This document shows positions 1 through 32,391 of a stretch of DNA of 34,339 bases, piece by piece (within the stretch, counting starts at the first letter, position 1; the number at the start of each line of letters is the position of its first letter). The position numbers were made by a program, and so were the translations under genes. The DNA lies in IMG/VR virus record IMGVR_UViG_2648501437_000013; one strand, written 5' to 3'. The notes beneath the pieces were generated by a model that worked only from the letters and a program-made list of their open reading frames with translations, had not been told where the DNA came from and searched no databases. The DNA is from a virus (taxonomy: Duplodnaviria > Heunggongvirae > Uroviricota > Caudoviricetes).

Positions 1-111
1 TGGCGATTGCCAGCCGCCTTTCTCGTTCCATCCTGGAACTGTGTCTTACCGACACATTGTCATCCTGACGCCGATAAGATACATGATTTAAAATGATAGG
101 TAAACACTTAC

Positions 112-705
112 TTACCACTTGTTATAAACAAAACCAATATCTTTCTTGTGAGGCATATCTGCTGCTGAAAAAGCTGCGATCTTCGCGAGTCGATCACATA
201 TTTCATTTTCACGATGCCCGGCGTGACCTTTAACCCACTTCCAGCGAACATTATGTCGACTTGCGGCCTCATCCAGACGCTTCCACAGATCAACATTCTT
301 TACCGGTTTTTTGTCAGAAGTCATCCATCCATTGCGTTTCCACCATTTCATCCACTGTGTCATGCCGTTTTTCAGATACTGGCTATCAGAGTGTAAAATA
401 ACGTTGCATGGATATTTCAAACGCTCCAGCCCGATAAGTGCCCCCATCATCTCCATGCGGTTATTGGTGGTGCTATGAAAACCATCTGAGAACTCGCGTT
501 CCTCTCCACGATACTGAAGAACGATACCGTAACCGCCCGGGCCACCCGGATTTTTAAGGCAAGAGCCATCACTGAAGATTTTCACGGTTTTAAGCTGGGG
601 ATTGAACTCTACGACAGGCGTTGTGGGATTGGTGCGGGGAGAATTTTTGTTTTTGGCTTTTTTGCGAGTTTTTGCTTGCGATCGGGCTGGTGTCTTCGTC
701 GTCAT
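112..705 (-). CDS. rnhA: Ribonuclease HI (RNase H), with ~40-aa Lys/Arg-rich N-terminal extension
   Basis: Translation shows RNase HI hallmarks (SDGSC...[19 protein letters not shown], [15 protein letters not shown]). Start moved from track 759 to ATG at 703-705, which is preceded by CAGGAG 5 nt upstream. Confidence 0.85.
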
Positions 706-1289
706 ATAAACTCCTGAATCAAGCGCCGCGCCGATTTTTTTCCTCGCGCGTGCGCACACGCGTGCGTGTTAATAATTATTAAAATAAACAAATTACTTCC
801 CAGAACAGGTTTTTATAAACCTGAACTGAACGAACGAAGTGAGTGAAGTTCACCTCGAACGAAGTGAGAGGTTGTCTTTTCAGGTAATACTCTCCCAGGG
901 AGGTGAGTATAAAAATCCCTCACCAACCTGGTCGTTTCATAACCTGAAAAGTTATGGTCTAAGTCTACTGCCAGCTTAGACTTGGGAAGTTATGGATGAC
1001 AGCACCCCAGAACCGAGATCTTCCCACACTTTATGAAGGGGAGTACTGGATTCAACCTCTCGAAACACCCCAGACTCGACAATCATAAAGTGACCCTTGT
1101 CTCCGCTCACTTTGGTTCCCCCTTCCCCGACACCTAAACGGCACCGGTTCTACGCTGGTAGTGAACTTTTTTAAACCTGACGCCAGTGACGCTTACCCCC
1201 ACCCATCAGGTCGAGTCTCCAGTCTACGACTGGAAACTATCAGATCTTAGCACTTACAATTCATCTTATGAATAGTTTGTACTTATCTA

Positions 1290-1520
1290 TCATTTCGATT
1301 GATTATTTTCTCGACCATGTAGTTGAACATTCAAGGCAAACACCTCGTTGATCAACTCACCTAAAAGCTGTTCAACAAGTTCGCGATGCTCCCCAAGATG
1401 CAAGCACTTAATTGCCCATTCGTACAAGTTGAAAGCCTGCTCGCGATCTTTCATCATTTCACGAGCCTTAGCCAGAAAATCGCTCTCTACGAGCGCAACA
1501 ACATTGGTCGGGTATGGCAT
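1290..1520 (-). CDS. Hypothetical protein (76 aa)
   Basis: Intact ORF, AAGGAAAA-type RBS upstream of ATG, same strand as flanking operons. No recognisable motif. Confidence 0.4.
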   Translation of the reverse strand: MPYPTNVVALVESDFLAKAREMMKDREQAFNLYEWAIKCLHLGEHRELVEQLLGELINEVFALNVQLHGRENNQSK

Positions 1521-1625
1521 GTTAGTTTTCCTTAAAGTGGTTCATAAAATCGATTTTAAAGCGTCTGGGAAGGGTTCTAGTGGATTCTGTAGTGATGTTC
1601 AGGTCTGGAGTCTCTGATACAAAAC

Positions 1626-1684
1626 AGCCTGCTTCCGTATATTAATAATTAATATGTAGTTATTTATATATACAGAAGCAGGCT
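1626..1684. terminator. Long imperfect hairpin (15-bp arms AGCCTGCTTCCGTAT / ATACAGAAGCAGGCT, AT-rich palindromic loop)
   Basis: Inverted repeat read directly; lies downstream of the minus-strand methyltransferase gene (stop 1706) with GTTTTGT after the stem on the minus strand. Confidence 0.4.
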
Positions 1685-30300: not shown

Positions 30301-30896
30301 CTGGCGACTTTCATCGCCCGGACGTTAATCTGGTCGTAGAATGGGGTAGGGTGCGGATAAACCACACTATAGAAGTTGTCTTTTCCACCCGCTGTAATCA
30401 GTGTGCTTATAATTTTTGCAAAATCGTTGCGTTGGAACACGCTACCGATGTCGGAAGTAAGCAGGATGATGTTGCCTTTGGCATATGTAGAAACCAACTG
30501 TTCGAGCGAGAGACGCGGTACAAAGTAGAACTGTTCTCGTGTGTTGGCCGCCGTCATTAGTTCGCAGATGTCGCGATATCCTTTCTCATTTTTAATTAGA
30601 GCGGTAAACGAGTAGTTACGTCCTCGCTCTAATGATTCCATACATCCCTTAGATTCTTTAGCAAGTTTAGCCCGGTGCTCGTATGTGGGATCATCAACGA
30701 TATTTAGTTTCACACCACAAATAACCGCCATGTCGCCACCAGCGGCACGTTGTAGTGGAATAACACTCGCAATATTCATGCTATCTGCTGAAATTACAGC
30801 GGTGTAGCCAGCTTCTCTGGCAATCTTCACCGCGTTTTCTGCTTTTAAAGCCGACTCCCCAAGTGAGAAGTCAGTTCGAACCATCAGTGCCTTCAT
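27378..30896 (-). CDS. dnaE: DNA polymerase III alpha subunit (DnaE-type replicative polymerase, N-terminal PHP domain)
   Basis: 1172 aa; PolC/DnaE palm motif [43 protein letters not shown]; PHP-like N-terminus; length close to E. coli DnaE, no intein-sized insertion. Confidence 0.9.
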   Translation of the reverse strand: [1172 protein letters not shown]

Positions 30897-31076
30897 GTGT
30901 TTTTACCTTTCTGGTTTTTTTGATTTTGTCATTTGGGAAGCCTACGAACTTCCCATGCATCGAAATCGCAACTTCTTTTGCTGATTGGTGACAATCAGGC
31001 TTGTCTGGACACACCAGACAAGCCTTACCAGTTTCAGAAGCAGCGATAAGAGAGCCGAAACATCCTTTACGCACGA

Positions 31077-32312
31077 TCAACCAAATATTTTTTGAACAAC
31101 TTCACGAGCCGCTTGTGCAGAAGCTGAAGGGAGTTTGTTAATGAAAGAACGCTCAATACCTGTCACAAAGTCGCCTCGCATCATTCCAATCTTGGCCGAC
31201 AACAAAAGTTCACGAGGGCCAATTGGCTGACTGATAAGGTGTTCTTCGTATCCATCGCGAACGATACCGGCAAACTTAACCATCTTTTCTGCGTATTCAC
31301 CCACGATACCGGCATTTATCAACATGTTGATCTCTGCCTCTTTGCTCATGTATTTCACATTCGAAACGATGCCAAAACGCGAAAAGTTCGCGGCGTTCTG
31401 GATGTTTGTACCCTGGTACAAGCCGGTTTCATCACCAGATCCGTTCGTGTTGCCAGTGCCAATGAAAGCAAACCGTTCATGCGGAGTAATGCGACGCCAT
31501 TCTGGAGTCGCCTCTTTGATGACCAACGCTTCACCTTCCAGCACTGGCTGATACACGCCAAGAATCTGTGGAAACGCAAAGTCGTATTCATCCGCGAGGT
31601 AAACCCAGCCATGCTTCATTGCGAGCGCAAGCAAGCCAGGCTCGAAATACGTAGAGCCATCACGCGCCAGAATTTGCCCCGTAACATGTGCCTCTTCCAT
31701 TGATGCTGTATGTTGGGCACGGATCAACGGACGATTGAGCAAAGCACATAGCTGTGTAGGCAATGACGATTTGCCTGTTCCTGCATGACCCCACAAATAG
31801 CCAGGTATGCCAAGTTCAAGCATCATGAAAATATCTTTGATCAGTTCGAAGTCGCCATATACGTAGCCCTTCTTCACTTCTGGAACGAACTCTGGATACG
31901 GCGTATTGACGTTGACGCTAACCATGAGCGGCGTCCCACGTTTTGTTCCGAGTTCTTCCACCGTTACGTTTAGCAGTTCGTGAGCTGCGACCAGATCTGT
32001 CTTGTACTCAACTGTGCCTGTGTAGCCAGGGCTACTGGTCAAGCCAGAAGATTTGGCCATTTCGCTTTTTTGCTCGGCACGTTTAGCTTGAATTGCATCA
32101 AGTGCCTTTTTCGATAGCGTTGGCTCATCTGGAAACTGCGTTGTGTACATTTTCAGTACGGTGTCAGGATCGGCATCTTTTACTGACTCAGGAATGCCCT
32201 CGCAATTACCATTGGCTACATGGGACTTAAAATAGTGAAATGATTTGCCGCACCACTTGCAAACAAGGTAATCAGAATGATTTTTTTCATTTTGCAGTGC
32301 AGTAGTCGTCAT
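31077..32312 (-). CDS. MoxR/CbbQ-class AAA+ ATPase (CobS-like) with N-terminal Cys-rich zinc-finger-like segment
   Basis: Walker A GHAGTGKSS, Walker B-like WVYLADEYD; N-terminal CKWCG...H...C; directly upstream of a vWA protein. Confidence 0.7.
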   Translation of the reverse strand: MTTTALQNEKNHSDYLVCKWCGKSFHYFKSHVANGNCEGIPESVKDADPDTVLKMYTTQFPDEPTLSKKALDAIQAKRAEQKSEMAKSSGLTSSPGYTGTVEYKTDLVAAHELLNVTVEELGTKRGTPLMVSVNVNTPYPEFVPEVKKGYVYGDFELIKDIFMMLELGIPGYLWGHAGTGKSSLPTQLCALLNRPLIRAQHTASMEEAHVTGQILARDGSTYFEPGLLALAMKHGWVYLADEYDFAFPQILGVYQPVLEGEALVIKEATPEWRRITPHERFAFIGTGNTNGSGDETGLYQGTNIQNAANFSRFGIVSNVKYMSKEAEINMLINAGIVGEYAEKMVKFAGIVRDGYEEHLISQPIGPRELLLSAKIGMMRGDFVTGIERSFINKLPSASAQAAREVVQKIFG

Positions 32313-32371
32313 GCGTTTTTCCTTTGTTCTCTAATGAGCGTTCAACTTCTTATATAAATATACCATTAACT

Positions 32372-32391
32372 ATCGTAAGTGGTTACTTATC
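32372..32391. promoter_or_regulatory. Palindromic motif ATCGTAAGTGGTTACTTATC upstream of the AAA+ ATPase gene
   Basis: Matches the 7931..7946 variant (ATAAGTAACCACTTAT). Confidence 0.4.

Follow-up and report, generated by a model that had tools for sequence, protein, structure and literature searches.

A symmetric palindrome of 20-26 bp recurs throughout the 34,339-nucleotide (nt) stretch of tailed-phage DNA analyzed here (34.3 kb; IMG/VR record IMGVR_UViG_2648501437_000013; hereafter the window). It is probably the operator of the element's lysogeny repressor, a dimer predicted to silence lytic genes in the plasmid state. The window is 97% identical to Escherichia phage Cyrano (pLF82, of E. 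coli LF82) over 85% of its first 25 kb and ~77% identical to Salmonella phage SSU5. The element is an SSU5-like phage-plasmid, related to the plague plasmid pMT1 and the typhoid plasmid pHCM2.

A Spacerless Dyad Recurs in the Window and across Genomes

A sequence-only reading of the window had described a recurrent palindrome of ~20 bp, and the recurrence is real: with up to three mismatches allowed, the earlier pattern has nine matches in the window and none in 100 shuffles. A symmetric weight matrix of 26 columns, built from sites in Cyrano and applied at a threshold of at least 12 bits, identifies 14 distinct sites in the window versus 0.16 expected from shuffles. In whole genomes, the matrix yields 35 hits in Cyrano and 35 in SSU5, versus 0.1 in shuffles; some of these hits overlap and represent one site read in registers 4 bp apart, and the number of distinct sites per genome is about 25-30.

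The consensus is a perfect dyad without a spacer, ATAAGTAAGT immediately followed by ACTTACTTAT, and is often extended outward to ATGATA...TATCAT. The full form is (atg)ATARGTAAGT/ACTTACYTAT(cat), with the slash marking the center of symmetry, equally written ATGATAAGTAAGT/ACTTACTTATCAT. The "GTG-N" center reported earlier is not general but one common variant, and this asymmetric center (GTG/CAC) is found in both orientations. All but one of the earlier coordinates hold, including a partial copy at ~1270; the other partial copy, at ~27262, scores below 8 bits, and 21646-21665 should be read as 21642-21661. In Cyrano, centers appeared to separate early from late genes (TG/CA at replication genes vs. 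TA at structural genes), a subdivision that failed in the site lists of SSU5.

The motif is not known to fit the Fur, TyrR, NrdR, LexA, IHF, or DnaA box. No description of it was found in the searchable literature, including papers on LF82, SSU5, pHCM2, pMT1, and phage-plasmids. A scan of viral contigs with the core 18-mer returned at least 120 loci. Among the matches listed, 88 of 120 have at least one match to a Cyrano protein, with a median mean identity to Cyrano proteins of only 44%, and the 32 without such a match mostly have one site each.

Sites Lie at the Junctions of Lytic Genes

The window represents the replication, recombination, and nucleotide-metabolism arm of the element, with nearly all genes on the minus strand. 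The gene order includes RNase H, Dam, ThyX, MazG, NrdAB, RuvC, SbcCD, a RepA variant, and Cra, and continues with stomatin, RecA, an exonuclease, a gp32-like single-stranded-DNA-binding protein (SSB), UvsY, DnaE, CobS, and CobT. The matrix sites and their neighbors are as follows, with orthologous copies given by position in Cyrano, SSU5, or a related Moellerella plasmid.

96-115, 27.7 bits: overlaps the RNase H stop codon (112-114), the downstream gene being beyond the left end of the window; orthologues at Cyrano 79651 and SSU5 79904.
1271-1290, 20.3 bits: abuts the stop of hyp80 (1290-1292); the CYRAN_81 region, which is expressed in the lysogen, lies 160 nt further downstream; orthologues at Cyrano 78477 and SSU5 78709.
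1648-1667, 16.4 bits: AT-rich loop of a terminator hairpin, probably a look-alike.
2311-2330, 28.6 bits: perfect copy (8+4+8), 11 nt upstream of the Dam methyltransferase ATG (2299), with a promoter-like TTGCCA-17-AAAAAT (2357->2329) immediately upstream; orthologues at SSU5 77651 and Moellerella 77771.
7931-7950, 21.1 bits: within a larger inverted repeat (7922-7958), 15 nt before the start of ThyX (7915); orthologues at SSU5 72511 and Moellerella 72886.
8065-8084, weaker at 16.4 bits: 2 nt past the MazG stop and upstream of a terminator (8018-8000); copies at the same junction at SSU5 72357 and Moellerella 72747.
12643-12662, 26.4 bits: 8 nt past the RuvC stop, overlapping TTGATA-17-TAACAT (12665->12637) and followed by a terminator (12636-12615) and then the nrdA ATG (12597); orthologues at SSU5 67775 (30.8 bits) and Moellerella 67417 (30.9 bits).
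17325-17344, 24.3 bits: 110 nt upstream of the SbcD start (17214); orthologues at SSU5 63080 and Moellerella 62854.
21315-21334, 24.2 bits: 1 nt upstream of the hyp60 ATG (21313), overlapped by TTTATA-16-TATCAT and TTTACA-17-TAGTAT.
21642-21661, weak at 14.4 bits: 13 nt upstream of the hyp59 ATG (21628); the SSU5 copy at 57746 scores 21.6 bits.
23268-23287, 27.2 bits: occupies the whole 17-bp spacer of the near-consensus promoter TTGAAA-17-TATTAT (23293->23265) and reaches into its -10; the RecA terminator (23323-23303) precedes the site, and a membrane-protein ATG (23235) follows after 32 nt.
26788-26807, 27.6 bits: 13 nt past the UvsY stop and 84 nt upstream of the ATG of the gp32-like SSB (26703), overlapping TAGATA-17-TATCAT; orthologues at SSU5 52175 and Moellerella 52521.
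32371-32390, weak at 14.2 bits: between cobT, whose stop is 17 nt away, and cobS, whose ATG (32312) follows after 58 nt; orthologues at SSU5 45124 and Moellerella 46007.
33702-33721, 13.9 bits: inside the cobT coding sequence, doubtful, and the sole match in coding DNA of the window.

Thirteen of the 14 window sites are mostly in noncoding DNA, which accounts for 11.8% of the window (binomial p = 1e-11), and 34 of 36 matches in Cyrano are intergenic in a genome that is 13% noncoding. The placement first proposed, between an upstream terminator and the start codon of an operon, holds only in part. In the window, 1-110 nt separate a site from the next start codon, and other arrangements occur too: the copies at 96, 1271, 8065, 12643, 26788, and 32371 lie across the stop codon of the preceding gene or immediately past it, and those at 8065 and 12643 are upstream, not downstream, of an intrinsic terminator. 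Across Cyrano, the distance to the following start codon is between 1 and ~130 nt, and 8 of 25 sites are within 17 nt of a start codon, with the ribosome-binding site between.

The idea of a replication and recombination regulon is too narrow, as the motif is genome-wide, lies before or between nearly all lytic genes, and is also found among terminase, portal, capsid, tail, and lysis genes. In Cyrano, sites are found between TerL and portal, within the 3' end of the portal gene itself, past the capsid gene, and before tail genes, the tail fiber, the holin, and a helicase-primase-ligase block, as well as before or between the counterparts of window genes. No copy is present in Cyrano upstream of the genes for KacT and its antitoxin, ParA, RepA, HicAB, MinD, or the FljA-like protein, all of which are expressed in the plasmid state. 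The motif marks lytic genes only.

Half-Sites Vary Independently, as Predicted for a DNA Operator

We compared the two arms of 72 sites from three genomes at 13 arm pairs. At all 13, the fraction of Watson-Crick pairs equals the expectation under independence; even at the most variable pair (4/17), the four combinations are similarly common (AT 17, GT 15, AC 14, and GC 13). Combinations of the G·U type on the sense strand are as frequent as those of the A·C type (83 vs. 87), indicating no bias. Two half-sites that vary independently argue for a dimeric binder of double-stranded DNA and not for a hairpin. The proposal of a shared operator for a dimeric regulator is thus supported, by the independence of the half-sites, the almost exclusively intergenic location of the sites, the conservation of their positions across deep divergence, and their coincidence with the few sigma-70-like promoters of the coding strand.

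The other possibility raised from sequence was a hairpin in the 5' untranslated region or in intergenic mRNA, which would control processing or stability or serve as a translational operator, possibly bound by the FljA-family protein (PF03614) that the element encodes. Several copies are 1-15 nt from start codons and perfect copies do fold, at -7 to -8.6 kcal/mol. However, it is the sequence of the half-sites that is conserved and not their pairing, and 6 of 12 window copies have a minimum free energy no stronger than -2.5 kcal/mol; three of these do not fold at all (0.0), even though matrix scores remain at 24-27 bits. No Rfam family matches the motif. We rejected CYRAN_114, the FljA-family protein of Cyrano, as an RNA-level binder, as no homologue was detected in the Moellerella plasmid, which retains the motif, and the RNA model fails anyway. 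We therefore regard a hairpin as highly improbable.

Positions Are Conserved Even Where the Sequence Has Switched

Conservation across relatives supports a function at these junctions. In SSU5, all 24 orthologous genes compared (24 of 24) have a site upstream. The Moellerella plasmid, with a DnaE only 61% identical, has a site at 12 of 15 orthologous genes, where chance predicts ~6% per junction. In its copies, the outer half-sites TARGTA...TACYTA are near-invariant and the central six bases drift.

Phage-plasmids of Acinetobacter are related to SSU5-like elements (PMC7969092) but much more distant (DnaE ~39%). They lack the enterobacterial version of the motif and have instead a variant of the same design, a 20-bp dyad of ATCAGTCAGT/ACTGACTGAT. 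The dyad TCAGT-N4-ACTGA is observed 12 times versus 0.1 expected, and 12 of 13 copies are intergenic. Several of its positions are those of sites in Cyrano: between TerL and portal, past the capsid gene, before terS, and within the divergent region of ParB and UvsW. Because position is kept while sequence is switched, the site would be functional and recognized by a protein, for which we consider this pattern strong evidence. The A. baumannii plasmid NZ_CP156934.1 has a region with dispersed variant dyads at 8254-49852, and copies of the variant are also found in front of a helix-turn-helix (HTH) regulator gene.

Promoters at the Motif Are Silent in the Lysogen

Matches to sigma-70-like promoters are depleted in the window relative to shuffles (by strand, 15 vs. 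29.0 ± 5.4 and 19 vs. 26.3 ± 5.6), and most of those on the coding strand are at or adjoin copies of the motif (2357->2329, 12665->12637, 21339->21312, 21351->21323, 23293->23265, and 26813->26785). The best of these promoters take their spacer from the first 17 bp of the motif and the start of their -10 from its final TAT. Promoters of this kind (10 of 12 consensus matches) are the TTGAAA-17-TATTAT of the window and TTGAAA-17-TATGAT and TTGAAA-17-TATCAT of Cyrano. We discarded a directional promoter signature: -35 and -10 scores are equal on both strands, TATNAT being part of the palindrome, and the flanks give no direction.

In published RNA sequencing of the LF82 lysogen (supplementary table of PMC9928086), lytic genes linked to the motif are at background, including those behind near-consensus promoters. 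The genes expressed there are those for the putative repressor CYRAN_45, the integrase, the ParA operon, RepA, toxin-antitoxins, and a few others. Lysogen reads fall from CYRAN_34 to CYRAN_35 and from CYRAN_64 to CYRAN_65, in both cases across motif-containing gaps, which is no more than an indirect hint at a block to elongation. Cyrano is induced by ciprofloxacin. In macrophages at 6 h, low log2 expression steps down across some sites and up across others, from 5.98 (Tc1) to 8.49 (tail12), from 4.06 (RecA) to 7.61 (membrane protein) at the counterpart of the 23268-23287 site, and, across the 21315-21334 junction, from 4.84 (hyp59) to 8.77 (hyp60). These steps are suggestive only.

A rival reading is that the motif is a promoter element specific to the phage. 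A dimeric activator of the lytic phase would bind the dyad, centered at about -20 relative to the start site, and bring host RNA polymerase to promoters that have a -10 only, in the manner of the P1 late promoters that depend on Lpa. The motif ends in TAT, mostly followed by (C/T)AT, giving a -10-like hexamer in a fixed register, and most copies lack a -35. In those late promoters of P1, a 9-bp inverted repeat, AAGTNACTT (the -22 box, AAGT(G/T)ACTT), is followed by 4 nt and a -10 (TANNNT), with no -35; the center of the motif is AAGT/ACTT, with TATNAT adjoining and a dyad 1 bp shorter. The element has P1-like genes, expression in macrophages is higher directly after some sites, and a candidate activator is CYRAN_123, a winged-helix protein of 88 amino acids (aa) that is encoded just upstream of terS, conserved in all four lineages, and silent in the lysogen.

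Other observations disfavor activation. The motif is ~1.5-2 bp closer to the -10 than is the P1 box, its conserved determinants are the outer TARGTA half-sites, and in Moellerella conservation is lowest in the very center that resembles the P1 box. Searches for P1 Lpa (gp10) with tblastn and phmmer gave a best E value of 0.7 in Cyrano, SSU5, and Moellerella, with tblastn also covering the window. We thus rejected an Lpa-type activator; the central resemblance is real, but no Lpa homologue was found and the geometry and pattern of conservation differ. The lack of direction noted above is likewise at odds with an activator-dependent promoter. From the 8 Cyrano sites within 17 nt of a start codon, a transcript would lose its ribosome-binding site, and several sites would fire straight into a terminator. 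CYRAN_123 itself was dismissed as the binder, because its putative recognition helix is hardly changed in Acinetobacter even though the motif differs. Many copies, about a third, cannot be promoters for the adjacent gene, which favors repression over activation. The same is favored by the near-consensus promoters with 17-bp spacers, which should need no activator yet are silent in lysogens, with the dyad as the sole conserved feature overlapping them. Given these observations, activation at the motif appears unlikely.

CYRAN_45 Is the Best Candidate for the Repressor

It was noted earlier that no regulator gene is identifiable in the window, which is correct, as the best candidate for the protein that binds the motif, a putative HTH repressor of the CYRAN_45 type, is encoded outside it. 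CYRAN_45 has 128 aa and its gene adjoins that of the integrase, in Cyrano two genes beyond cobT, the gene at the right end of the window. In the LF82 lysogen, it is expressed at ~10x background. Homologues are present in 865 plasmids of PLSDB, with counts per genus nearly the same as for the DnaE of the element. The protein matches PHROG 8, "transcriptional regulator" (E = 1.3e-11), and a profile search of the PDB yields weak matches (0.019-0.027) to the XRE-type repressors 2kpj and 8bny. Its putative recognition helix, KNANNLSLIKSGK, is conserved while identity across the protein drops to 56-66%; likewise, the stretch GYKNANNLSLIKSGKIPLP is conserved and has the counterpart GFKRPNVLSMIKSGE in Acinetobacter, where the motif also differs.

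The CYRAN_45-type gene is divergent from lytic genes, expressed in the lysogen, and has a promoter of its own that is overlapped by a putative operator: TTTACA-16-TAATAT is followed by ATC(G/A)GTAAG(C/T)ACTTACCA, a copy of the motif over the -10/+1. This block of promoter and motif is kept in Cyrano, pHCM2, pMT1, and a Klebsiella plasmid, in all of which the flanks diverge. The switch region has two good copies in Moellerella and one full and two half copies of the variant in Acinetobacter.

SSU5 lacks a CYRAN_45-type gene. It is 99% identical to Enterobacter plasmids (e.g., NZ_CP134668.1) up to a breakpoint at SSU5 ~42640, just past tRNA-Asn, where the Enterobacter plasmids carry an integrase-repressor module. 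From this comparison, SSU5 looks like a recent deletion derivative that is lytic. Its keeping of the sites is therefore uninformative, and we dismissed its lack of the repressor as an argument against CYRAN_45.

Other proteins of the element were considered. CYRAN_117 (Cyrano 103221-103499; 92 aa), encoded in the UvsW operon, has counterparts in SSU5 and Moellerella that conserve it, and its expression in the lysogen is 12x background. Its N-terminus is ribbon-helix-helix-like by eye, with no database support, and it is a weaker, second candidate for a DNA-binding regulator.

Two genes for proteins with a ParB_N domain are conserved in all lineages, the first of them preceded at 17 nt by a copy of the motif. 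ParB-family proteins bind dispersed palindromes in the IncP plasmid RK2 (KorB at OB) and in N15 (SopB at its centromeres), where a repeated palindrome is bound by one dimeric silencing protein. The dyads could by analogy have a role at the level of DNA other than in transcription, as centromere or condensation sites for such proteins or as signals for replication or packaging. However, the binders in RK2 and N15 are full ParB-family proteins with an HTH, whereas both proteins here have only the N-terminal domain, with no HTH detected, and are silent in the lysogen, the state in which partition is needed; we rejected them as binders on these grounds. In addition, regions for plasmid maintenance have no copy of the motif, the element expresses a separate ParA operon, and the strict tie to junctions of lytic genes and to promoters fits transcription better. 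A nontranscriptional role is thus very unlikely.

A Model for Silencing by a Dispersed Repressor

Under the repressor reading, a dimer of an XRE-like HTH protein of the CYRAN_45 type would bind the half-sites TARGTA(AGT)/(ACT)TACYTA on double-stranded DNA. Binding would take place at ~30 places in the genome, including the 12-13 window copies before or between genes for replication, recombination, and nucleotide metabolism. At sites in the spacer and -10 of a sigma-70 promoter (e.g., 23293->23265), the bound dimer would exclude RNA polymerase. At sites in tiny gaps between genes (1-15 nt from a start or across a stop), it would act as a roadblock to read-through, similar to a "stoperator". The weaker copy over the -10/+1 of the repressor's own gene would provide autoregulation. 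We infer that CYRAN_45 binds the motif, that binding represses, and that elongation is blocked at nonpromoter sites.

Several observations count against this reading. A -35 with at least 4 of 6 matches at 17 bp is present in only 9 of 72 sites; most are not obvious autonomous promoters, as a model of activation would predict. Because the -10-like TATNAT belongs to the palindrome, overlap with promoters is partly built in. Several sites are just upstream of intrinsic terminators, where neither an operator for a promoter nor a roadblock is seemingly needed. With respect to expression, CYRAN_34 has a copy 41 nt before it and yet is expressed ~4-fold over the lysogen background, and steps across sites in the macrophage data run both up and down, at low read counts. 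For the candidate itself, HTH matches in Pfam are below curated thresholds (HTH_19, E = 7.8e-4, 19.7 bits vs. a cut-off of 30.2 bits) and the PDB has no close relative of CYRAN_45.

Comparison with Known Systems of Dispersed Operators

The closest parallels are in phages with many scattered operators. The operator of the P1 repressor C1 is an asymmetric 17-mer (ATTGCTCTAATAAATTT type), and C1 has 283 aa. As in P1, in which Oref, Omat, Ossb, and Olpa are annotated (NC_005856), the prophage is a plasmid and a repressor would act on scattered operators. The site here, a palindrome, has no sequence relationship to that of P1, and the candidate repressor is smaller, at 128 aa. Moreover, late genes of P1 are controlled indirectly via Lpa, whereas here the same motif is also at head, tail, and lysis genes.

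In Cluster A mycobacteriophages (L5, Bxb1, and TipsytheTRex), one repressor acts on more than 20 genome-wide sites located in promoters and in short intergenic gaps among lytic genes (PMC9283540). The elements described here are similar in having 25-30 sites per genome that are mostly intergenic and are located in promoter spacers, in gaps of 1-15 nt, and across stop codons. They are also similar in having specificity variants between lineages and in the retention of sites by a lytic derivative that has undergone deletion: D29 for the L5-like phages and, from its apparent recent deletion, SSU5 here. Differences are also evident. Sites of the L5 type are asymmetric 13-mers bound by a monomer and work in one orientation, whereas the dyads here are perfect, 20-26 bp in size, and have no asymmetry in their flanks (Wilcoxon p = 0.56 and 0.64). 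The host is Gram-negative, the prophage is a plasmid, and no similarity to the stoperator domain was detected in the 128-aa candidate. Sites that are symmetric and free of orientation, together with a different candidate protein, therefore place the system in neither the Cluster A nor the P1 C1 group.

A wider proposal, which we put forward only tentatively, is that SSU5-like elements such as pMT1, pHCM2, and those of Klebsiella and Acinetobacter are silenced by a symmetric, dimer-bound counterpart of the stoperator system. One small HTH repressor acting at ~30 dyads of conserved position would combine occlusion of promoters with a block to read-through over early, middle, and late genes. Immunity groups would be set by a change of two bases in each half-site, from TAAGTAAGT to TCAGTCAGT, combined with changes in the recognition helix.

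SSU5-like elements account for ~800-900 records in PLSDB, including pMT1 (Yersinia pestis), pHCM2 (Salmonella Typhi), and many plasmids of Klebsiella, and are among the commonest phage-plasmids of Enterobacteriaceae. For these elements, the analysis supplies the specific sequence of an operator with ~30 mapped sites and names a candidate for its repressor. Dispersed repressor sites over a whole genome are so far best known from P1 and from phages of actinobacteria. If the repressor reading is true, Gram-negative hosts would have them too, in a symmetric form bound by dimers. Loss of the repressor gene by deletion would then account for the lytic phage SSU5, and groups of superinfection immunity would be predictable from sequence alone.

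Other Features of the Window and Its Relatives

Three modules of the window are unlike those of Cyrano (17000-20600, 23328-24401, and 27225-27387). RepA is only 50% identical to that of Cyrano. The RecA gene of the window encodes 357 aa versus 779 aa for the version in Cyrano, which presumably has an intein-like insert. The HicAB toxin-antitoxin pair, located between DnaE and UvsY in Cyrano, is absent from the window.

On the minus strand at 760-1290, ~500 nt between hyp80 and RNase H are poor in open reading frames. A 44-aa coding sequence annotated there in Cyrano, CYRAN_81, equals window 1110-982; it is expressed at 12x above background in the LF82 lysogen and is 97.7% conserved in SSU5. 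As RNA, 800-1270(-) has a predicted fold of -173.5 kcal/mol (z = -5.15), and Rfam has no match for this region. The 760-1290 stretch may correspond to a structured noncoding RNA that is expressed in lysogeny.

A full-length FljA-family protein is encoded outside the window (Cyrano 100780-101301; SSU5_121). In Cyrano, this protein (CYRAN_114) matches PF03614, "repressor of phase-1 flagellin" (E = 1e-80), and has Hfq/LSM-like similarity; it may be a regulator of host flagellin carried by the phage.

Long terminator-like hairpins, CTGCTTCTGTATATA...TATATACAGAAGCAG, recur in the window (1626-1690) and in Cyrano (31160-31215, 78080-78135, and ~108340). Their AT-rich loops score as weak look-alikes of the motif, and the hairpins appear to be a separate repeated element.

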